62,813 bases of DNA, from the NCBI GenBank assembly GCA_943359365.1, contig CALRHG010000001.1, forward strand, positions 1 through 62,813, read 5' to 3'. The DNA comes from Candidatus Nomurabacteria bacterium. Lineage in GTDB: Bacteria; Patescibacteriota; Minisyncoccia; Phycocordibacterales; UBA9973. Positions 37,695 through 52,382 of this stretch are shown here, one piece after another; positions within the stretch are counted from its first letter, which is position 1, and each line of letters starts with the position of its first letter. Below the pieces are notes generated by a model. That model worked only from the letters and a program-made list of their open reading frames with translations, searched no databases and was not told the origin of the DNA. The translations under genes and the position numbers were made by a program.

Positions 37695-37784
37695 ATAGGT
37701 ATTATAGCAGAGACCTTGCCCCGTACCAAGCTGGCTTTGGTGCGGGGTTGCCTTTTTGTGAAATTTCATATAGTATACAACAAT

Positions 37785-40250: not shown

Positions 40251-41210
40251 ATGAGTAAAAAAGTAATATTGTCAGGCATCCAATCTTCCGGAAGAGCTCA
40301 TATCGGCAACTATTTTGGGGCAATGAAGCAGTTTGTTGATTTATCCGAAACCTACGATTGTTATATTTTTATAGCCGACTATCACGCATTGCATTCTCTG
40401 CAAAATCCGAAAGAAATGAAAGAAAATATTACTAACCTGCTTTTAGATTATCTTGCCGTTGGCCTTGATCCCAAAAAAGTAACCCTTTTTAAGCAGAGCG
40501 ATGTTTCAGAGCATACAGAGCTCTGCTGGATTTTTGACACTATCACAACGATGCCATATCTGATGCGGGCACACGCTTTCAAAGATGCCGAGGCAAAGAA
40601 TAAAGAAATAGTTGTGGGAACTTTCAATTACCCAATGCTTCAAGCGGCTGATATTTTATTGTATAGTCCGGATGTCGTGCCGGTGGGGCAGGATCAAAGG
40701 CAGCATGTGGAAATTTCCCGCGATACAGCGGAAAAATTTAATAGAATTTACGGCCAAGGAGGTCAGACTTTCAAAATACCAGAGCCCTTGATTATGGATG
40801 CTGTAGCAGTAGTGCCGGGAACTGACGGGCGCAAAATGAGCAAGAGCTACGGCAACACCATTCCGCTTTTCGCCGAATATGAAGAAATAAAAAAAGCGGT
40901 GATGAGTATTGTCACGGATTCTAGCGAAGGAGTCCCAAAGAATGTTTACGCGATACATAGCCTGATTCGTTCTGCGGTAGAACTCGATCCGATTTATAAA
41001 AGTAAAACAGGAAAATATAAAGAACTAAAAGAGCTTCTTATCGAAGATTTGGAAAAATTCATCGCGCCGCTGCGAGAAAAGCGAAAAGCATTCGAAAAAG
41101 ATATTCCCAAAGCGCTAGCAATACTCAAAGCTGGCGGAGAAAAAGCTAAAAAAGTCGCTTCAGCGAAAATGGCTGAAGTGCGGGAGAAAATCGGGGTTCA
41201 AGTGTACTAG
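40251..41210 (+). CDS. trpS: tryptophan--tRNA ligase
   Basis: GIQSSGRAHIGNYFG (HIGH-type motif) and KMSKS. Confidence 0.95.
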   Translation: MSKKVILSGIQSSGRAHIGNYFGAMKQFVDLSETYDCYIFIADYHALHSLQNPKEMKENITNLLLDYLAVGLDPKKVTLFKQSDVSEHTELCWIFDTITTMPYLMRAHAFKDAEAKNKEIVVGTFNYPMLQAADILLYSPDVVPVGQDQRQHVEISRDTAEKFNRIYGQGGQTFKIPEPLIMDAVAVVPGTDGRKMSKSYGNTIPLFAEYEEIKKAVMSIVTDSSEGVPKNVYAIHSLIRSAVELDPIYKSKTGKYKELKELLIEDLEKFIAPLREKRKAFEKDIPKALAILKAGGEKAKKVASAKMAEVREKIGVQVY

Positions 41211-41212
41211 CC

Positions 41213-41512
41213 ATGAAACACAAAAATAAAAAAATTCCGGAATATAAGCATGAGCTGGTAGAAATTTTCTCCAAAATTCACGGAGATAAAAATTTTATGG
41301 CGGAATTTCTAAAGGATATTCTGACTCCGGCGGAATTCGAGACTATGGCTTTGCGCTGGCAAATAGTAAAAAAGATAGATAAGGGCGAGACTCACAGGTC
41401 CATAGCAGGGGATTTAGGTCTAGGAATAAGCACAGTCACCCGCGGTTCTCGCGAACTTCGCAACAAAAACGGCGGGTTTCATCTGATGTTGAAGAAACTC
41501 GGAAATAAATAG
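41213..41512 (+). CDS. Trp-repressor-like protein (TrpR / YerC-YecD family)
   Basis: LTPAEFETMALRWQIVKKIDKGETHRSIAGDLGLGISTVTRGSRELRN. It starts 2 nt after the trpS stop. Confidence 0.7.
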   Translation: MKHKNKKIPEYKHELVEIFSKIHGDKNFMAEFLKDILTPAEFETMALRWQIVKKIDKGETHRSIAGDLGLGISTVTRGSRELRNKNGGFHLMLKKLGNK

Positions 41513-41542
41513 CAGGAAATCAAAACGAAGAGTTGTCCACAG

Positions 41543-41589
41543 ATGCAATTTGCATTATTTTTTTGTCCTGTTATCATGTACTAGTACAT
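41543..41589 (+). promoter_or_regulatory. promoter with two palindromes, including a TrpR-type operator candidate
   Basis: -35 TTGCAT (41550-41555) lies inside the palindrome ATGCAAtTTGCAT. After a 16-nt spacer comes TGt-TATCAT (41569-41577). The perfect 14-bp palindrome ATGTACTAGTACAT (41576-41589) overlaps the -10 and the start site. Confidence 0.6.
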
Positions 41590-41625
41590 AGATACAAGAG
41601 ATTTGATGTTCTTTAGAAAGGATTT

Positions 41626-41793
41626 ATGGCAGAGATTCAAGTTTCCGATGATGAAATTAGGGCTCATATAAGAAAAAGGGGTCCTGTGGGTGTGGCCGAT
41701 TGGGGGCCAAGAAGAACTCTTGACTGGGAAGTAGCTAAGAGAGAACTAATTGCGCTCAAGGCAAAGAGCGCAGAAAGAAAGGAGATAAAATAA
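41626..41793 (+). CDS. 55-aa hypothetical ORF in the trp leader region (not in the ORF track)
   Basis: Manual translation gives MAEIQVSDDEIRAHIRKRGPVGVADWGPRRTLDWEVAKRELIALKAKSAERKEIK*. A weak AAAGGA precedes it and a 9-bp hairpin (41803-41831) follows. Confidence 0.3.
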   Translation: MAEIQVSDDEIRAHIRKRGPVGVADWGPRRTLDWEVAKRELIALKAKSAERKEIK

Positions 41794-41857
41794 TTTTTTG
41801 GTGGGTGTCGATTGTTATGCAGTCGGCACCCATCCATTATTAAAATTAAACAAAACA

Positions 41858-41929
41858 ATGAAAACAAAATTTAAATTAAAAAAATCTTGGTGGAGCGCAG
41901 AAAATATAGTTCTTGCGCTGTTTTGTTGA
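41858..41929 (+). CDS. trpL: trp leader peptide candidate with tandem Trp codons (23 aa)
   Basis: Manual translation gives MKTKFKLKKSWWSAENIVLALFC*, with TGG TGG at 41888-41893. Compare E. coli TrpL, [14 protein letters not shown]. Confidence 0.6.
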   Translation: MKTKFKLKKSWWSAENIVLALFC

Positions 41930-41965
41930 TTTCTTTTTACCTATATAAATAAGGAATCTATTAAG

Positions 41966-41987
41966 AAGCGCGAGAGCGCTTTTTTTG
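41966..41987 (+). terminator. attenuator terminator (segments 3:4) upstream of the trp genes
   Basis: AAGCGC-GAGA-GCGCTT followed by seven T. Segment 3 can alternatively pair with 41910-41919. Confidence 0.65.
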
Positions 41988-42112
41988 TCTGTCATGGGCA
42001 AAAAAAGTTTGTGAAAACTCATACAAAAATTCTCAGGTGCCGGAGTCTACCTTATCTAGTGATTCTGAAATATGGTTCCTTGAAAATTAAATAGGAAGAA
42101 CGAAGGAGTAAG

Positions 42113-42679
42113 ATGTACAACGACACAATGATAATCGCTGAGGTTAAACCAAAATCACCGAATTTCGTCTCAGAAAAGAGTTGGGATGAACTTTTCGAGA
42201 TTGCAGTTTCCGTCGGCGATTGGATATCTATTCACACGCACGAATGGTGGGGAGGATCGTTTGAACTAATTGCAAAAGCCCGTTCTCGCACAAAGAAACC
42301 AATTCTAGCAAAAGGTTTTCACGAGACCGATGAAGATGTAAAACGCGCTCTTTTAATGGGCGCAGATTACGTCTTAATGGTTGGACGAATGCCGAACATT
42401 CATCAAGACAAATGTCTCATCGAACCATACACCGTAGAAGAATTACTCAAAATTCCCGATGGTCTTAAATGTGTATGGAATTCACGAGATATGCGTGCGC
42501 TTATCTCTGGCAGAAAAGAAAGTCCACGAAAATCTTTTGAAGATGTTCGAGTTCTCTGTCCTGATGTTTGGCTCTGCCAAGCGAGCAATCTCAAAACAGC
42601 ACAAGATATTAGCAAAGGGGCAGATGCGGTCTTGGTTGGCACAAACCTCGAAACATTCGCTCAGTCTCTTTGCTCTTAG
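42113..42679 (+). CDS. short, divergent indole-3-glycerol-phosphate-synthase-like protein
   Basis: IIAEVKPKSPN, ISIHTHEWWGGSFE, KPILAKGF, GADYVLMV, LIEPYT, VWNSRDM and GADAVLVGTNL align by eye with TrpC motifs. It is only 188 aa, and the SESG site reads QASN. Strong SD: GAAGGAG. Confidence 0.5.
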   Translation: MYNDTMIIAEVKPKSPNFVSEKSWDELFEIAVSVGDWISIHTHEWWGGSFELIAKARSRTKKPILAKGFHETDEDVKRALLMGADYVLMVGRMPNIHQDKCLIEPYTVEELLKIPDGLKCVWNSRDMRALISGRKESPRKSFEDVRVLCPDVWLCQASNLKTAQDISKGADAVLVGTNLETFAQSLCS

Positions 42680-42709: not shown

Positions 42710-44155
42710 ATGCAAAACTCAAAATTAGAAATATTCAGCAAAAACCGCGAGGCAGCAATCAAGGACAATCGCGCAGTCGCGACACTCATTAGTACTGTCT
42801 CGGGTAAAAAGCTTCCTGATCCGCTCTTGGTTTACAATGCGGTACTTCAAAAAAGTGCGCTTCCAGCCTGTTTGCTCGAAAGCGCAATTCACGACGGCAA
42901 GAAAGGACGATATTCTTTTCTCTGCCCTTACGGTCGGCCGTTTGTCACCATGCGGGAAAAAGAAAGCTTGTCTCCAGTCAAGGAAATGCTTCGAAATAAT
43001 TGCCCGCTTACGCACGAATATCTGCCATTCATTGGTGGAGCTATCGGTCCCATCAACTATGAAGTTACCAGCTTTATAGAAGATACGGTGAAGCCACATT
43101 CGATAGATCCATTCGGTTTGCCGGTCGTTGCATTGTATTTTTTTGATTGTGTCATCGTTTTTGATCATCAAGAAAATCAATTGCATTACGTTGTGAACGT
43201 TCCGACGGCGCTCAGTGCTGAGGAAGGTTACAAGAAGGGATGTTGTATTATCAAAGAGATGAAGCAGTTTGTCTCTGATTCTTCTACAATCCCTATTCCT
43301 TCTGATACAGCTGATCTTGATTCTATCAAGTCCACTCTGTCGGAAGATGAATTCAAAGAAATGGTTGTGAAAGCGAAACGACATATCCTCGCGGGGGATA
43401 TCTTCCAAGTGGTACTGTCACGTCGCCTTTCGGTTCCATTTCAAGGTAACGGGCTCTCGTTCTATAGAGCTTTGCGCAGAAACAATCCTTCGCCGTATTT
43501 ATTCCATATGCGTCTTGATGAAAATTGCAAAAACGCAGTTCTCATCGGAGCGTCTCCGGAAATTATGGTGAACATTCATCATCGAAAGATGACCATTCGG
43601 CCTCTCGCGGGGACGAAAAAACGCGGAGCAACTCCGGAAGAAGACAATCAAATCGAAAAAGCCATGCTCTGCGACGAAAAAGAAACAGCCGAACATCGCA
43701 TGCTTGTCGATCTAGCACGCAACGACATGGGTAAATTTTGTGAAGCAAATTCGATTGAGGTTACTAAGCTTATGCAGGCGGAGTATTTCAAATATATCAT
43801 GCATATCGGGTCAGAAGTTCAGGGTGAGCTTCGTCCAGAGGTCCATCCGCTTGATGCTCTTTTTGGCGTATCGCCAGCAGGGACATTATCTGGATGTCCG
43901 AAAGTTCGGGCACAGCAGATCATCTCGGAGTTTGAGTCTTCACAGAGAGGAGTGTATGGCGGGACTTTCGGTTGGTTAACCGATCAGTCGCTCTATACAT
44001 GCATCTTCATCCGAAGCGCTCTGCTTCTGGAAGATACATTGCATTGGCAAGTCGGCGCCGGAATCGTTTACGATTCTGACCCGCAGTCAGAATATCGGGA
44101 AACTGAAATCAAAGCGATGGGTATTGAAAAATCTCTTCGCGATATGAAAGGTTAA
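42710..44155 (+). CDS. trpE: anthranilate synthase component I
   Basis: LLES..GRYSF N-terminal motif, GDIFQVVLSRR, NPSPYLFH, IRPLAGTKKRG, EHRMLVDLARND, GVYGGTFGW. Confidence 0.85.
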   Translation: MQNSKLEIFSKNREAAIKDNRAVATLISTVSGKKLPDPLLVYNAVLQKSALPACLLESAIHDGKKGRYSFLCPYGRPFVTMREKESLSPVKEMLRNNCPLTHEYLPFIGGAIGPINYEVTSFIEDTVKPHSIDPFGLPVVALYFFDCVIVFDHQENQLHYVVNVPTALSAEEGYKKGCCIIKEMKQFVSDSSTIPIPSDTADLDSIKSTLSEDEFKEMVVKAKRHILAGDIFQVVLSRRLSVPFQGNGLSFYRALRRNNPSPYLFHMRLDENCKNAVLIGASPEIMVNIHHRKMTIRPLAGTKKRGATPEEDNQIEKAMLCDEKETAEHRMLVDLARNDMGKFCEANSIEVTKLMQAEYFKYIMHIGSEVQGELRPEVHPLDALFGVSPAGTLSGCPKVRAQQIISEFESSQRGVYGGTFGWLTDQSLYTCIFIRSALLLEDTLHWQVGAGIVYDSDPQSEYRETEIKAMGIEKSLRDMKG

Positions 44156-44157
44156 TT

Positions 44158-44760
44158 ATGTATAAAAGAAATCAAATGCGGGTTGTGGTGTTGGATCATT
44201 ATGATTCTTTTACTTACAACCTTGTGGTGTTCTTAGAAAAACTTGGCGCTTCAGTTATAGTTTTGAGAACTGACGCTAGTTTGGACGAGATAAAACGGTA
44301 TAACCCAACTCATATTGTCCTTTCGCCTGGACCGGGGCATCCGAAAGATGTTCCGCTCTTTCAGGAAGTGATTGAATACTTCAAGATACATATTCCCATT
44401 CTGGGAGTGTGTCTCGGACATCAAGCGATAGGGCTTAATTGTGGAGCGGAAGTTGAAAAAAGCAGCGCAATCATGCACGGCAAGGTTTCCTCGGTAACCC
44501 ATAATGGTGTGGGAATTTTTCAGGGAATCCTAAGTCCGATCAAAGTTTGCCGATATCACTCTTTGGCGATTGTGGAAAAAAGTATTCCGCGAGGAACACT
44601 TATCATAACTGCTCGGAGTGAAGACGGCACAATCATGAGTGTCGAAAGCAAAAAACACTCAAATGTTATAGGGGTGCAGTTTCATCCCGAATCACTCTTT
44701 ACTGAGCATGGTTCGGCTTTACTTCAAAACTTCCTGAAAATGGAAGTGCGTCCGGCGTAA
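44158..44760 (+). CDS. trpG: anthranilate synthase component II (glutamine amidotransferase)
   Basis: VLDHYDSFTYNLV, GVCLGHQAIG (catalytic Cys), GVQFHPES. Confidence 0.85.
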   Translation: MYKRNQMRVVVLDHYDSFTYNLVVFLEKLGASVIVLRTDASLDEIKRYNPTHIVLSPGPGHPKDVPLFQEVIEYFKIHIPILGVCLGHQAIGLNCGAEVEKSSAIMHGKVSSVTHNGVGIFQGILSPIKVCRYHSLAIVEKSIPRGTLIITARSEDGTIMSVESKKHSNVIGVQFHPESLFTEHGSALLQNFLKMEVRPA

Positions 44761-47632: not shown

Positions 47633-48062
47633 AAAAATTATATATCTGAATGGATCCAGGCTCAAAGTTTGCATTGTTGTCGCAAGATGGAATGGTGAAA
47701 TCACTAGCAAGCTTTTGGAAAGCGCACTGGCGGCTTTGAAAAAATGCAAAATGCTAGATAAAAATATAAGAGTGGTTCATGTTGCTGGAGCTGTTGAAAT
47801 TCCTTTTGCGCTTCATAAATTGGCCCAGTCAGGCAAATATGATTTTCTGGTGGCGATTGGGTGCGTGATTCGCGGGGAGACTCCGCATTTTGATTATGTC
47901 TGCAAAATGGCGCAGGAAGGAGTTTTGGAAGTAATGCTCGAAGATGATATTCCCGTTGGTTTCGGTATTCTAACCATGAACAATCTCGCGCAGGCAAAAA
48001 AAAGATTTCATGTCGGCGGTGAAGCGGCGTTGGCGGCGTTAGAACTTGCTTTAATAAAGTAG
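47592..48062 (+). CDS. ribH: 6,7-dimethyl-8-ribityllumazine synthase
   Basis: [36 protein letters not shown]. The start may be ATG 47616. Confidence 0.9.
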
Positions 48063-48066
48063 AATT

Positions 48067-49305
48067 ATGAAGAAAATTAAAAAAACCGAATACAAGTTAA
48101 ATTCTATACAAGATGCTATTGCTGATATAAAATCTGGAAAAGTTGTAATTGTGGTAGACGATGCCAATCGCGAGAACGAAGGAGATTTTATCACGGCGGC
48201 ACAAAATGCGACTCCAGAGATAATAAATTTTATGGCAATCCACGGCCGCGGACTTGTGTGTGCCGCTCTTCCACCCGAGCGATGCGAAGAGCTTGAGCTT
48301 CCGATGATGTCTTCTAAAAATACTTCTCTTCAGTCCACTTCCTTTACTGTTTCGGTGGATTTGCTGGGTCATGGCTGCACCACCGGTATTTCTGCGCACG
48401 ACCGAGCGAAGACGATACAGGCCTTGATTGATCCTTCCATAAAGCCTCAAGATCTCGGACGTCCAGGGCACATTTTTCCTATTCAGGCGAAAGGCGGCGG
48501 AGTGCTCCGCAGAGCCGGGCATACTGAAGCGGCTGTTGACCTTTCAAATTTGGCGGGCATGGAACCGGCGGGGATTCTCGTAGAGATTATGAACAAAGAC
48601 GGCACGATGGCGCGGCTTCCAGAATTATTTAAAATTGCGCAAAAGTTTAAATTAAAAATAATCAGCATTGAAGATTTAATTCGCTACAGACTTCAAAAAG
48701 AGACTCTCGTAAAAAAAGAAGTGCAGGTAAAACTGCCGACCAAATGGGGAGACTTTGATTTGTATGCTTATAGTCGCAAAGACAACGGCGAAGAAAATTT
48801 GGCTTTAGTAAAAGGCAAATGGAAAAAAGACGAGCCTGTATTGGTACGCGTGCATTCTTCCTGCATTACCGGAGATGTTTTCGGATCTTTCAGGTGTGAT
48901 TGCGGACCGCAGCTCCATGTGGCTATGGAGAAAATTTCTCGTGAAGGCAAAGGCGTGATTGTATATATGAATCAGGAGGGCAGGGGAATCGGCTTGTTGA
49001 ATAAATTGAAAGCTTACAAGCTCCAAGAGCAGGGCCTCGACACCGTGGAAGCAAATTTGAAACTTGGTTTCAAGATGGACGAACGGGATTATGGCATAGG
49101 AGCGCAGATCTTGCGGGATTTGGGCGTCTCTAAGATAAGACTTTTGACGAACAATCCTAAAAAACGAGCCGGACTCGTGGGCTACGGGCTAGAAATCGTG
49201 GAAAATGTTCCGATAGAAATAAAATCAAACGAATACAACAAAGATTACCTTTTGACCAAGCGCAACAAAATGGGGCATGTGCTGCTCGATTTAGACAAGC
49301 TTTAG
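48067..49305 (+). CDS. ribBA: bifunctional 3,4-dihydroxy-2-butanone-4-phosphate synthase / GTP cyclohydrolase II
   Basis: [21 protein letters not shown], then [24 protein letters not shown] and EGRGIGL. Confidence 0.9.
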
Positions 49306-49848
49306 AACCGGCGCTTTGACGCCGTCTTTAATTTTCTTTTTTGATGTAAAGACTTGTGTTTCGTCATATAAATTATTTTTAATAAAGCTGTTTAGAAGCT
49401 CCGCTCCGCCTTCTACGAGGAGTGACTGGATATTTCTTTTGTAAAGCTCTTTCAGAATCTGCGAAAGTGTGTTTTTTTTGAAATTTATTTTTACGAATTC
49501 CAAATTTCGCTCAGAGCGTGTGCTTTTGGCGGTGAAAATTATTGTGGGCGTACTTTTATCCAGCAAATTAAAATTTTTAGGTATTTTTAAATTTCGGTCG
49601 ATGGTTATTCGAAGGGGATTTTTACCTTTTACCTCGCGCGTCGTCAGGCGCGGATTGTCGAGGAGCGCAGTATTAGTGCCTACCATGATGGCATCCACTT
49701 CGCTTCTCAATTTATGCGTCGCTATTTTGTCCTTCTTGTCGCTTATTTGCAGAGCTTTTTCCAAACTGCCGAAAACTCGTTTTCGGTCAATAAAGCCGTC
49801 AGCCGTTTGCGCCCATCTTAAAATAATATAAGGGCGTTTTTTAACCAT
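49291..49848 (-). CDS. RibD C-terminal-type reductase domain protein (no deaminase domain)
   Basis: [47 protein letters not shown]; only 185 aa. Confidence 0.7.
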
Positions 49849-50730
49849 TTAATTATTTGGAATCTCGAGGACTTCCACCTGCGTATCAAAAGATGCATCT
49901 TTGATCAGGATTGCGTTGGTGATGAAAAGTTTGTTGCAGGAATTATTTAGTATTTTATCCGCGATTCTGTGGCCGGCGAAGACTCCGTGCGTCGCTCCGA
50001 CGATTATTTTCTTCGCTCCGCGAGCTTTCAAATGGTCTATCGCGCGGACAATCGTCCCACCGGTAGAAATAATGTCGTCCAAGATGCAGACATTTTTTCC
50101 TTCAACATCTATTTCTCCTTCCATCGTGGCTATCTCGGCGTGGATTCCGGTATCTGTGCCATTTTCTTTGCTATCGCCGCGCACTTTTTTAAGTGAATGG
50201 CTCAGCTGTCCTTTGGCATTTTCCGTAAAATATGAAGAACCTTCGTCGGGCGACACTACGACAAATTCATCATTTTTTTTACCGAACCATTTTTTTGCGT
50301 AAGCGTAAAGCTCCGGTCCGGCGGATCTGTTTTCTATCGCGAGCCCTTCTCGCTCGAAATCTCCCGGCTTGGACAAGAAGTGGCAATCGTAAGTGATTAA
50401 TTTTTTCACGCCGAAAGATTTCAAAAGTCCGCAAAGCAAATCCGCGCTGACGGCTTCTCCGGCTTTTTTTTCTTTGTCTTGGCGGGCATAGGGGAGGTAA
50501 GGCGCGAAAAGCTCGATATCTTTTGTTTCTTTCTGCAGGCGAGATAAAATGAGCATTAACTCAAATATTCTCTTGTCTTGCTCAGGGTAGAGCCTGTGAT
50601 ATATTCGGACAGGTTCGCCTTTCAGCTTCTCAATCTCAGGAATTAAAACATAAGACTCATTGTCCGGAAAATGCTTGATAATAATGTTTGGTTTCCCAAA
50701 ATCCGCACAATAAGGGGTGATTAATTTCAT
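49849..50730 (-). CDS. prs: ribose-phosphate pyrophosphokinase
   Basis: ARQDK motif and PRPP-binding loop ILDDIISTGGT. I trimmed the start to ATG 50730 (MKLITPY..). Confidence 0.85.
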   Translation of the reverse strand: MKLITPYCADFGKPNIIIKHFPDNESYVLIPEIEKLKGEPVRIYHRLYPEQDKRIFELMLILSRLQKETKDIELFAPYLPYARQDKEKKAGEAVSADLLCGLLKSFGVKKLITYDCHFLSKPGDFEREGLAIENRSAGPELYAYAKKWFGKKNDEFVVVSPDEGSSYFTENAKGQLSHSLKKVRGDSKENGTDTGIHAEIATMEGEIDVEGKNVCILDDIISTGGTIVRAIDHLKARGAKKIIVGATHGVFAGHRIADKILNNSCNKLFITNAILIKDASFDTQVEVLEIPNN

Positions 50731-50831
50731 GCACAGATTGTATATTATTTTAAGGAAATTTACAAATAAAAAAGGCGGGTCGTTCTTCCGAACAAACACC
50801 GCTCTAATTTTTTGCGTTGGCAAGACGTGAT

Positions 50832-51002
50832 TCAGATTTCGTCTAGACGTTTTCCTGTGCGCCTATTTATTTCGCAGTGTTTGCAATAATCTCCGGGGAC
50901 GCATCCCCAGTCACCCCTAGGCCAAGTGATACGATCTTCTTCAACTCTTTCCCACTCGTGTTTTCCTGTGGGCGATTTTTCGCATTCAGGTTTTTCAGTC
51001 AT
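50832..51002 (-). CDS. 56-aa Cys-containing hypothetical protein (not in the ORF track)
   Basis: Manual translation gives MTEKPECEKSPTGKHEWERVEEDRITWPRGDWGCVPGDYCKHCEINRRTGKRLDEI*. GGAAGGA lies upstream. A hairpin with a GGAA loop plus a T6 run lies downstream on the minus strand (about 50774-50803). Confidence 0.45.
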   Translation of the reverse strand: MTEKPECEKSPTGKHEWERVEEDRITWPRGDWGCVPGDYCKHCEINRRTGKRLDEI

Positions 51003-51076
51003 AACTTTTTCCTTCCAAAGAACTAACTACACTCTTTTGGTGAGTGTCGGCCAAGCATTGTCTCGGTACAACGCAA

Positions 51077-51108
51077 AACCCCTTCCTAAACAAACTTAGG
51101 AAGGGGTT
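51077..51108 (-). terminator. intrinsic terminator after the second TrpR-like gene
   Basis: AACCCCTTCCTAA / TTAGGAAGGGGTT forms a 13-bp stem, followed on the minus strand by TTTTGCGTTG. Confidence 0.75.
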
Positions 51109-51131
51109 AGTTTCGAAAAATAATTAAAAAA

Positions 51132-51530
51132 TTACGAGCTCAAAAGCAACCCTTTGCTAAGTTTGGAAGAGTTACTATGATGGCTTGCTAATCTATTCAA
51201 AATCAAACGGTATCCGCCAAGCGAACCTTTGAGCCACTTAGCTATGCGGGCGATAGTGGCGGAAGAAAGACCAGTACTTTCGCTGATGGCGTTGTATTGC
51301 ACATCTTTGGAAAGGAGTGTTGCAGCTTCGAGACGATTGGCGAATTCTTTGATTTCGGCTTCGGTCATTAGGTCACGCAGAAAAAGCTTTGCCTCGTCGG
51401 GGCTTTTCAATTCTAAAATACCGGCAACAAATTGCTTGTTTATTCTCGCATTCCAGTCAATAACAGGTCCAATCTGCTGGACCATTTTGACTGTCTTTAC
51501 TCTTGTTTTGTCATTCATTCCTTTACTCAT
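51132..51530 (-). CDS. Trp-repressor-like protein (TrpR / YerC-YecD family), second copy
   Basis: FLRDLMTEAEIKEFANRLEAATLLSKDVQYNAISESTGLSSATIARIAKWLKGSLGGY. Confidence 0.65.
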   Translation of the reverse strand: MSKGMNDKTRVKTVKMVQQIGPVIDWNARINKQFVAGILELKSPDEAKLFLRDLMTEAEIKEFANRLEAATLLSKDVQYNAISESTGLSSATIARIAKWLKGSLGGYRLILNRLASHHSNSSKLSKGLLLSS

Positions 51531-51536
51531 TCCGAT

Positions 51537-51565
51537 ACTTTAGCAAACTAAAGTACTTTAGTCAA
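51537..51565 (-). promoter_or_regulatory. promoter with an embedded 14-bp palindrome for the second TrpR-like gene
   Basis: On the minus strand: TTGACT-N17-TAAAGT, then 6 nt, then ATG 51530. The spacer contains the perfect palindrome CTAAAGTACTTTAG (51548-51561). Confidence 0.55.
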
Positions 51566-51640
51566 GTAAAGTAACTGCCGAGGTGTGGATAACCCCGAAC
51601 CAGAGCAAGCTCGGTACGGGGCAGGCTTTTTCTATTGTCT

Positions 51641-51671
51641 TATTCGTACGAATGGGTAAATAGCGAAATTA
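51641..51671. repeat. conserved ~30-nt element containing the palindrome ATTCGTACGAAT, copy B
   Basis: TTATTCGTACGAATGGGTAAATAGCGAAATTA matches 20713-20743. Confidence 0.7.
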
Positions 51672-51683
51672 GGTCTAATTTAT

Positions 51684-52382
51684 TTAATATTGCGCAAGTT
51701 TAGCTCTGCCGGGAAAATTTTTTAGCTGAAATTGCGAGTTTTTATTGTCGCGTTTTAATTTTTTAAATTTGAGCACCATGCGCTCGAGTTCGGTCGAGGC
51801 TTTGTTTATGTAATTTTTCATAATTTTTTGCATCTGTTCTTTCATAAAAAGGTAATGAACTCTGTCGAGCTCTTTAAATCCCCAGTTTTCTTTATATAAA
51901 ATGTCATGCTCGATCTCCGCCCAGGCATGCTCTAATATCAGGCAAAGCTGCACTTCGCATTCCAAGCCATCAAACGCATTATACTCGGATAGTTTCAGTC
52001 TTTCTTTTCCTAAATATAAGACTGCGTGGATAGCTTGATATCCGGATACTTTTTTAGTCTTCTCTATCTTAAGCGAGTTTTTAAATTCTTTTTGCAGTCT
52101 TCCGATAAATTTTCTTCTGTCGTTTCCCGTGTAAAAGATCACTCTTACCCCGGCGATATCTTTTATGTCTTCCAGTTTTATATATATTTTCCCTTTTAAA
52201 AGTTTCCGCTCGATCTTTTCCCTCAGGCTTTCGGCTTGTTTCAGTCGGGAGTACATATAACATTTATATCCTCCCTTTTTCAGTATGTCCTCCAAAAGAA
52301 AATTTACCGCACTGGTGAATTCTTTGTATAAACCTGCTTTAGTTTTATATTCTTTCAGAATTTTTTTTGCGTGGTGGTTCAT
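51684..52382 (-). CDS. small RelA/SpoT-domain (p)ppGpp/ppApp synthetase-like protein (SAS; possible toxSAS)
   Basis: YSRLKQAESLREKIERK, DIAGVRVIFY, SGYQAIHAVL, ECEVQLCLILEHAWAEIEHDILYK. This is a synthetase-domain pattern with no hydrolase domain. Confidence 0.75.
   Translation of the reverse strand: MNHHAKKILKEYKTKAGLYKEFTSAVNFLLEDILKKGGYKCYMYSRLKQAESLREKIERKLLKGKIYIKLEDIKDIAGVRVIFYTGNDRRKFIGRLQKEFKNSLKIEKTKKVSGYQAIHAVLYLGKERLKLSEYNAFDGLECEVQLCLILEHAWAEIEHDILYKENWGFKELDRVHYLFMKEQMQKIMKNYINKASTELERMVLKFKKLKRDNKNSQFQLKNFPGRAKLAQY

Follow-up and report, generated by a model that had tools for sequence, protein, structure and literature searches.

In the contig CALRHG010000001.1 of a Candidatus Nomurabacteria bacterium, whose 62,813 nucleotides we refer to as the window, a short leader that is located upstream of the genes of anthranilate synthase is very likely to be a ribosome-mediated attenuator, i.e. 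a device that depends on Trp codons and senses charged tRNA-Trp. The attenuator is embedded in a more extensive control region, which also includes a gene of the TrpR family, a predicted promoter with an operator-like palindrome, a conserved open reading frame (ORF) of 55 amino acids, called orf55, and a conserved element that is located after the terminator. The organism is placed in the Candidate Phyla Radiation (CPR; Paceibacteria) by the names of its closest homologues.

The leader and its alternative hairpins

The leader of the window is composed of the following features:

41858 to 41929, plus strand: leader peptide ORF MKTKFKLKKSWWSAENIVLALFC, read from the sequence (ATG at 41858, 23 codons, TGA at 41927-41929)
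41888 to 41893, plus strand: tandem Trp codons TGG TGG, the putative regulatory codons, read from the sequence
41894 to 41902, plus strand: segment 1, AGCGCAGAA, the 5' arm of the anti-antiterminator, which pairs with 41910-41919
41909 to 41925, plus strand: segment 2 at its full extent, with TTCTTGCGCT at 41910-41919, common to the 1:2 and 2:3 helices
41928 to 41958, plus strand: inner hairpin, conserved, which separates segments 2 and 3 and overlaps the stop codon of the leader with its 5' arm
41962 to 41977, plus strand: segment 3, the 3' arm of the antiterminator and the 5' arm of the terminator
41963 to 41986, plus strand: intrinsic terminator 3:4, found by a terminator scan (stem 41963-41984, T-run 41980-41986)

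The initial annotation of the window had proposed a leader ORF of 23 codons with TGG TGG at 41888-41893, followed by segments with alternative pairings, and the ORF is present as proposed; its stop codon is located 3' of segment 2, eleven codons past the Trp pair. Tandem TGG codons occur in 6 of the 592 small ORFs of the window that begin with ATG (about 1%): five of these are found inside long genes, and the leader at 41858 is the only one that is intergenic.

All of the proposed pairings are recovered by folding, and one of them turns out to be more extensive than had been described. The 1:2 hairpin is formed by 6 and 3 base pairs that are separated by a one-base bulge (-8.8 kcal/mol). The 2:3 pairing, which had been described over ten positions, contains the two G-U pairs that were attributed to it, but its core consists of 11 base pairs (41909-41919 with 41967-41977) and is extended by another five (41921-41925 with 41962-41966); the whole 2:3 structure, with the inner hairpin enclosed, amounts to -24.9 kcal/mol. 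The terminator, AAGAAGCGC-GAGA-GCGCTTTTT at 41963-41984, was found by an independent scan, has a stem of -11.2 kcal/mol, and carries the run of seven T that had been claimed for it, two to five of which are able to pair within the terminator stem. The fold of 41858-41995 is not equalled by any of 200 shuffled sequences (z = -3.57); the minimum free energy (MFE) structure of 41858-41987 corresponds to the terminated state (-30.4 kcal/mol).

The effect that a ribosome would have on the choice between the two states was examined in silico, by folding five leaders (that of the window and those of the four relatives introduced below) with a masked footprint of 30 nt. A footprint over either Trp codon leads to the 2:3 antiterminator in all five leaders, a footprint over the stop codon leads to the 3:4 terminator, again in all five, while the free RNA adopts 1:2 together with 3:4 in four of the five. 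These outcomes agree with the two ribosome positions that the initial annotation had postulated, namely a stall on the Trp codons that would free segment 2, and an arrival at the stop codon that would give 3:4.

On the basis of these structures, the attenuator would operate as follows. Transcription would start at the promoter that abuts the TrpR-type operator (41549-41590), pass orf55 and enter the leader, where a ribosome would translate the 23 codons. When Trp-tRNA is scarce, the ribosome would stall at TGG TGG and mask segment 1, and the freed segment 2 would bind segment 3, which would sequester the terminator's 5' arm, so that the RNA polymerase would continue past the terminator and transcribe the truncated trpC-like gene, trpE and trpG. 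When Trp-tRNA is plentiful, the ribosome would reach the TGA at 41927-41929 and mask segment 2, and the 3:4 hairpin and the U-run would form; when there is no translation, 1:2 would form, and so would 3:4. Once 3:4 and the U-run are formed, transcription would stop near 41987. Combined with the adjacent repressor of the TrpR family, the attenuator would establish a dual control similar to that of E. coli. The translation of the leader, the coupling of ribosome and polymerase, the binding of TrpR and the response to tryptophan are inferred.

The same hairpins might be governed by a factor that acts in trans, i.e. a protein of the TrpR/YerC family, the product of orf55, a TRAP-like factor or an uncharged tRNA. 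Two genes of the TrpR family and a conserved small ORF are found nearby, T-box-like leaders occur in sister lineages, and the invariant loop of the post-terminator element looks like a binding site, all of which would suit such a factor. We consider it improbable: the window contains neither a T-box match in Rfam nor the motif GGTGGNACCRYG, (G/U)AG repeats of the TRAP type, spaced by 2-3 nt, are absent from 41796-42112, and the conserved open frame, the Trp codons that are located exactly 5' of segment 1 and the conserved stop codon that is located just 3' of segment 2 suit a sensor that is a ribosome, while a sensor that is a protein or a tRNA needs none of them.

Homologous leaders in related genomes

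The CPR-only clade of TrpE consists of about 25 sequences, and genomic contexts were examined for eleven of them. The gene order dnaB (minus strand), trpS, TrpR and, further downstream, trpE and trpG is common to the window, L173 (a Nomurabacteria metagenome-assembled genome) and L178, and the invariant block that follows the terminator, used as a DNA probe, led to L180 (which derives from the organism of L178), L181 and L182. Our comparison is based on a five-genome alignment of the leaders from the window, L173, L180, L181 and L182. The leader peptides of the four relatives are:

L173: MMILEKSQMNTKGKSWWGAKASVLSAFAPVCEFLQVTST, which reads KSWWGAKA...FAPVC
L180: MVMLGNKNFKIGGKSWRGAKAEKTEAFAPVC, which reads KSWRGAKA..FAPVC
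L181: MMILENKYREIKAGENTHEGRSTCEYDLILKSWWRVEALSLSAFASVC, which reads KSWWRVEA...FASVC
L182: MMIYIGKLQINKIDTKSNSWWSAKHFAFAPVC, which reads NSWWSAKH..FAPVC

The tandem TGG codons are kept in three of these four homologues (L173, L181 and L182). Between the ATG and the Trp codons, the five leaders contain no stop in 101 codons, versus 29 stops in the 192 codons of the other two frames; by our own arithmetic, the chance of such an open frame is about 1e-7 at the background stop rate. Every distance from the ATG to the Trp pair (30, 45, 45, 57 and 96 nt) is divisible by 3. The fact that the frame is kept open argues for translation of the leader, and the leader of the window would then be translated as well. 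An upstream extension of the window ORF to TTG at 41798 or GTG at 41801 was also considered, and was ruled out by an in-frame TAA in the counterpart of L180. In all four relatives, the ATG of the leader is located exactly 6 nt past a -10 hexamer (TAGCAT, TAGTAT or TATCAT), so that the leader is probably translated from a leaderless mRNA in these genomes.

The encoded peptide is variable in both sequence and length on the 5' side of the Trp pair, while its 3' side is constrained by the RNA pairing. Both properties speak against an arrest peptide similar to TnaC, where free tryptophan would stall the ribosome and the downstream genes would be induced at high Trp. A leader peptide that contains Trp upstream of Trp-related genes, and the unclear part that an orphan trpE-trpG pair plays in the metabolism of CPR, would be in line with such a peptide; however, the downstream trpE and trpG are of the biosynthetic type, and the sister lineages use T-box-like leaders, which are induced on starvation. 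An arrest peptide is, in our judgement, scarcely credible here.

The pairings of the attenuator are conserved together with the frame. Across the five genomes, 90.5% of the cells of the terminated fold (1:2, inner hairpin and 3:4) are paired and 7 of its pairs have changed on both sides, and the corresponding values for the antiterminated fold (2:3 and inner hairpin) are 93.4% and 5 pairs, compared with 42-56% paired cells in slid controls for both folds. Among the individual helices, 2:3 is 97.5% paired (3 pairs changed on both sides), 3:4 is 95.6% paired (2 compensated pairs), the inner hairpin is 92.3% paired, and 1:2 is 88.9% paired (3 pairs changed on both sides). The initial annotation had pointed to covariation in relatives, and to the conservation of the Trp codons and of the 2:3 and 3:4 alternatives, as the features on which its proposal depended: the helices are kept with compensatory changes across the five genomes, and the Trp pair is kept everywhere except in L180.

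A different explanation would be that the terminator simply ends the unit of TrpR and orf55, that the ORF with its two Trp codons has arisen by chance, and that the trp genes are transcribed from a promoter in the post-terminator element. The window leader lacks a Shine-Dalgarno sequence, tandem TGG is carried by chance in about 1% of the small ORFs, and the highly conserved block after the terminator might contain a promoter or a site for a protein, as this explanation would have it. On the other hand, in L173 and L182 the leader and the terminator directly follow the promoter, so that no further gene is present whose transcription could end there; both the frame and the Trp codons are conserved; segment 2 alternates between segments 1 and 3, with compensation; and a promoter in the conserved block was judged unlikely, as neither an acceptable -10 hexamer (the best is TATCTA) nor a match in the promoter scan is found there. 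We regard this explanation as quite improbable.

Several observations weigh against the interpretation of the leader as an attenuator. The main weakness concerns the window copy itself, which is an internal leader, unlike the arrangement in the four homologues: it is located 65 nt after orf55, behind a hairpin of -26.6 kcal/mol, and its ATG is not preceded by a Shine-Dalgarno sequence, which leaves the translation start of the window leader uncertain. The two states of the window leader are close in energy and the default state is finely balanced, since the addition of eight bases at the 3' end turns the MFE structure of the window leader into the antiterminated one (-34.6 kcal/mol). The comparison rests on five genomes, the shuffle controls of the pairing conservation are just moderately significant, and L180 has TGG CGG (Trp-Arg) in place of Trp-Trp, as well as a second, decayed copy of the leader. 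Lastly, a conserved element is interposed between the terminator and the structural genes, and no trpD, trpF, trpB or trpA was found among the window ORFs that were scanned, in a scan that covered part of the window.

The decayed copy of L180, MKNQLKINKLTRSWRSTNIIAFVL, is located at 984-1058, 3' of orf55; it contains a single Trp, its inner hairpin and its terminator are deleted, and its position is equivalent to that of the intact leader of the window.

Further searches for relatives of the leader were conducted at several levels. A profile search with the leader peptides returned just the known L174 peptide and a fragment of 20 amino acids that matches the L182 leader exactly, viral contigs that were scanned for the pattern of the leader gave no match, and a TrpE-based scan of GTDB genomes for close relatives gave distant Firmicutes and others, but no close relative; the alignment-based TrpE scan was dominated by TrpE from outside CPR. 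A small ORF with the residues W-R-W, located after TrpR in L169/L170, was considered as a second leader family; the terminator always wins in its masked folds and, as no antiterminator is formed in them, this ORF was not counted as support.

The control region and the genes around the probable attenuator

The following features are located upstream of the leader:

40251 to 41210, plus strand: trpS, tryptophanyl-tRNA synthetase (Pfam tRNA-synt_1b; NCBIfam TIGR00233, 284.5 bits, above cut-off)
41213 to 41512, plus strand: gene of a TrpR-family repressor, 99 amino acids (Pfam Trp_repressor PF01371, E = 7e-18)
41549 to 41577, plus strand: predicted sigma-70-like promoter TTTGCA-17-TATCAT, TG-extended, found by a promoter scan
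41577 to 41590, no strand assigned: palindrome ATGTACTAGTACAT, similar to a TrpR operator, which abuts the -10 hexamer
41626 to 41793, plus strand: orf55, which encodes a small conserved protein, has a Shine-Dalgarno sequence of its own and has homologues in L178/L180 and L181
41799 to 41836, plus strand: strong hairpin without a U-tract, located after orf55 (-26.6 kcal/mol)

The conserved block opens with trpS, upstream of which dnaB and recR are located on the minus strand; the synteny of DnaB (minus strand), TrpRS and TrpR is common to L173 and L178. The protein of 99 amino acids has TIGR01321 (TrpR) as its best NCBIfam match, below the cut-off; in an alignment with E. coli TrpR structures, it retains the residues LTP...R...GIsTvTRGS.

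The predicted promoter of the window has counterparts of the form TTGCTT-17-TAGCAT/TAGTAT/TATCAT in L173, L180, L181 and L182. The core of the operator-like palindrome, GTACTAGTAC at 41578-41587, resembles the CTAG-centred trp operator of E. coli; it occurs once in the window, where 0.21 chance matches are expected with up to one mismatch. In the homologues, ACTAG-N3-ACTAG is found at the same place, overlapping the -10 hexamer, with the 8 bp spacing of CTAG repeats that is also seen in the trp operator of E. coli. The arrangement suggests that 41549-41577 would serve as a promoter and that the palindrome would be bound by TrpR.

No Pfam or NCBIfam match was found for orf55, which is located 5' of the leader in the window, and 3' of the first leader in L180 (at about 745-915) and in L181 (on the minus strand). 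At the position that corresponds to the hairpin 41799-41836 of the window, L180 has a hairpin of another sequence.

A conserved, GC-rich hairpin of 45 nt, CTGCCCCGTACCGAGCTTGCTCTGGTTCGGGG, fused to TTATCCACA, which is similar to a DnaA box, is found at 51586-51625 (minus strand) and 37716-37758 (plus strand) of the window, at about 3625-3670 of L173 and at about 452-497 of L180: in L173 and L180 it is located between TrpR and the operator promoter, and in the window it is located upstream of a second gene of the TrpR family. A variant of this hairpin is found upstream of rplU, and GTTGTCCACA is found at 41532-41541 of the window. The second TrpR-family gene (51132-51530, minus strand) matches TIGR02531, the YerC/YecD type, above cut-off (59.7 bits) and adjoins a gene with a RelA/SpoT domain (51684-52382).

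The following features are located downstream of the leader:

42006 to 42067, plus strand: conserved post-terminator element, near-identical in the five genomes
42113 to 42679, plus strand: truncated gene similar to indole-3-glycerol phosphate synthase (IGPS; TrpC), 188 amino acids, the first gene after the attenuator (partial Pfam IGPS match)
42710 to 44155, plus strand: trpE-like gene, anthranilate synthase component I (Pfam Chorismate_bind and Anth_synt_I_N)
44158 to 44760, plus strand: trpG-like gene, glutamine amidotransferase component II (Pfam GATase; NCBIfam trpG_papA, 195 bits, above cut-off)

The post-terminator element occurs once in the window, and it is also present in L173 (3905-3985), L180 (1068-1140), L181 (minus strand) and L182 (minus strand); it is near-invariant although the TrpE proteins of the five genomes are about 47-50% identical. 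It is composed of a small hairpin, AGTTT-GTGA-AAACT (42006-42019), the invariant AAAAATTCTCAGGTG, and a second hairpin (42041-42047 with 42061-42067), whose stem of 6-7 bp encloses an invariant loop of 13 nt, TACCTTATCTAGT. The stem of the second hairpin covaries (GGAAUC/GAUUCC, GAAAUC/GAUUUC and GGAGUC/GAUUCU), and AGGUG, which is invariant in the five genomes, may possibly form a pseudoknot with the equally invariant UACCU of the loop. Between 41988 and 42135, the fold is no more stable than those of shuffled sequences (z = +1.21), so that any structure that exists there would be local or pseudoknotted. No Rfam match was found for the element, and a coding function was rejected, as a length difference of 1 nt in L173 breaks the frame. 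The element may modify the attenuator or add to it.

The distance from the attenuator to the first gene is 125 nt, measured to the start codon at 42113, in agreement with the gap of about 125 nt that had been given. The trpC-like gene that had been assigned to the unit is present; however, it belongs to a truncated IGPS-like family of about 180-190 amino acids that is widespread in CPR (630 matches) and covers just part of the IGPS profile. At the IGPS-like loci of 80 other genomes (L008-L087), none of the 80 has trpE, trpG or TrpR nearby, none has a T-box motif upstream of the IGPS-like gene, and the leader motifs are absent from all of them. As this gene is never adjacent to trp genes in those genomes, its position in the window is taken as a local insertion of a paralogue that is not linked to trp elsewhere. 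The trpE-like gene has trpE_most as its best NCBIfam match (427 bits, below the equivalog cut-off), and the TrpE proteins of the CPR clade retain the motifs LLES..S and PLAGT.

The genes that are located directly 3' of the post-terminator element differ between genomes: an IGPS-like gene, trpE, a Zn-ribbon ORF, or an ORF that is, by eye, similar to class-IV aminotransferases. Small, Cys-rich Zn-ribbon ORFs are located directly 3' of the Trp control region in L182 (minus strand, about 1960-2300 of the reverse complement) and in L169 (3680-3937); in L182, the Zn-ribbon ORF is the sole gene between the leader and asnS/aspS, where neither trpE nor trpG is found. Speculatively, these ORFs might be seen as loosely reminiscent of regulators of the anti-TRAP type.

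At the scale of the window, the cumulative GC skew peaks at about 48000-52000 and the orientation of the genes turns from plus to minus near 49-50 kb, which is consistent with a convergence point similar to a replication terminus.

Relation to known systems and implications for CPR

The comparison with the known systems of Trp sensing is concerned with the E. coli trp operon, with leader-peptide attenuators of other bacteria, and with the T-box. The initial annotation had likened the leader peptide to E. coli TrpL and had called the unit a complete attenuator of the enterobacterial type in a CPR-like genome. The functional likeness, the features of the mechanism at the level of sequence and the CPR assignment hold, but homology does not: an Rfam scan of the leader region gave nothing at gathering score, and Trp_leader (RF00513) was not matched in 41400-42300 even at E <= 10. 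The weak matches that were obtained are Phe_leader (RF01859), with 27.9 versus 55 bits (E = 0.024), and Bacteroid-trp (RF01692), with 22.4 versus 49 bits (E = 9.2); both of these families are likewise leader-peptide attenuators outside enterobacteria, and the CPR leader belongs to neither. As no Rfam family is matched, the leader is analogous in mechanism to the enterobacterial attenuator, and not a member of its family.

The elements that are common to the CPR unit and the E. coli trp operon are a short leader ORF that contains tandem Trp codons, the 1:2, 2:3 and 3:4 alternatives of four segments, the intrinsic terminator, a repressor of the TrpR family, a CTAG operator (putative in CPR) that overlaps the -10 region, and the control, predicted in CPR, of trpE and trpG as the first enzymes. 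The differences are as follows: the E. coli trpL stop is located three codons after the Trp pair, while that of the CPR leader is located eleven codons after it, past segment 2; an additional conserved hairpin is present between segments 2 and 3; there is no similarity by sequence or by covariance model; the homologues look leaderless; the operon consists of just the truncated trpC-like gene, trpE and trpG; and the host belongs to CPR.

The trpL attenuator of Sinorhizobium meliloti is described as controlling trpE(G) alone, and not a whole trp operon (PMC6614838), and the CPR leader resembles it in that it would govern essentially anthranilate synthase alone. The S. meliloti system differs in its alphaproteobacterial sequence family, in the absence of TrpR, and in the action in trans of both the released attenuator RNA and the peptide. 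A leaderless arrangement is known from the polycysteine small-ORF attenuators of mycobacteria, which sense Cys (bioRxiv 10.1101/834739): there, the regulatory short ORF begins at the 5' end of the transcript, as is predicted for L173, L180, L181 and L182, whereas the sensing of Cys, the occurrence in Actinobacteria and the downstream mechanism are different, and the leader of the window is internal.

Within the TrpE clade, the T-box motif is carried by eight CPR organisms; in seven of them (L168, L171/172, L175, L176/177, L183, L184 and L185) it precedes trpE, and in one (L169/L170, at about 2501) it precedes TrpR. Four of the trpE-proximal sites match RF00230 significantly (E = 1.8e-6, 5.5e-5, 0.014 and 0.049), although all of them below gathering; these T-box-like leaders are divergent (26-44 bits versus the 93 bits of gathering), with the T-box motif and terminators present, which suggests that the T-boxes of CPR are missed by standard annotation. 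Their location upstream of the sister trpE-trpG genes indicates that the operon would be controlled by tRNA charging across the clade, and the lineage that is linked to TrpR has a leader peptide where the others have a T-box-like leader. The two devices are alike in that both would allow read-through on shortage of tRNA-Trp for orthologous trpE-trpG genes, and they differ in that the T-box binds the uncharged tRNA directly. In the literature that was searched, no paper was found that describes, for CPR, Trp attenuation, T-boxes or the regulation of anthranilate synthase; so far as that literature shows, the leader constitutes a new sequence family, and its probable mechanism, well known elsewhere, is undescribed in the phylum.

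A more extensive scheme can be put forward tentatively, although we consider it unlikely as a whole: an orphan anthranilate synthase under three tiers of control, namely TrpR with its operator, a mostly leaderless attenuator, and the invariant element of about 40 nt at 42025-42067 as a new RNA switch that would bind a ligand or a protein. As just trpE and trpG (with the truncated trpC-like gene in the window) are controlled, anthranilate might, in this scheme, be made for a pathway that is shared with a host.

CPR bacteria (Patescibacteria) are usually described as lacking the biosynthesis of amino acids, and their translation machinery as pared-down and unusual. A conserved attenuator implies that transcription and translation in CPR cells are coupled closely enough for the position of the ribosome to steer the folding of the RNA, and that these cells monitor the charging of tRNA-Trp in order to regulate anthranilate synthase. 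The occurrence of either a T-box-like leader or a leader peptide with TrpR at orthologous trpE-trpG genes, within one small CPR clade, amounts to a natural swap of sensing devices, and the attenuator offers a well-delimited regulatory element that can be tested, in organisms for which growth in isolation is not yet possible.

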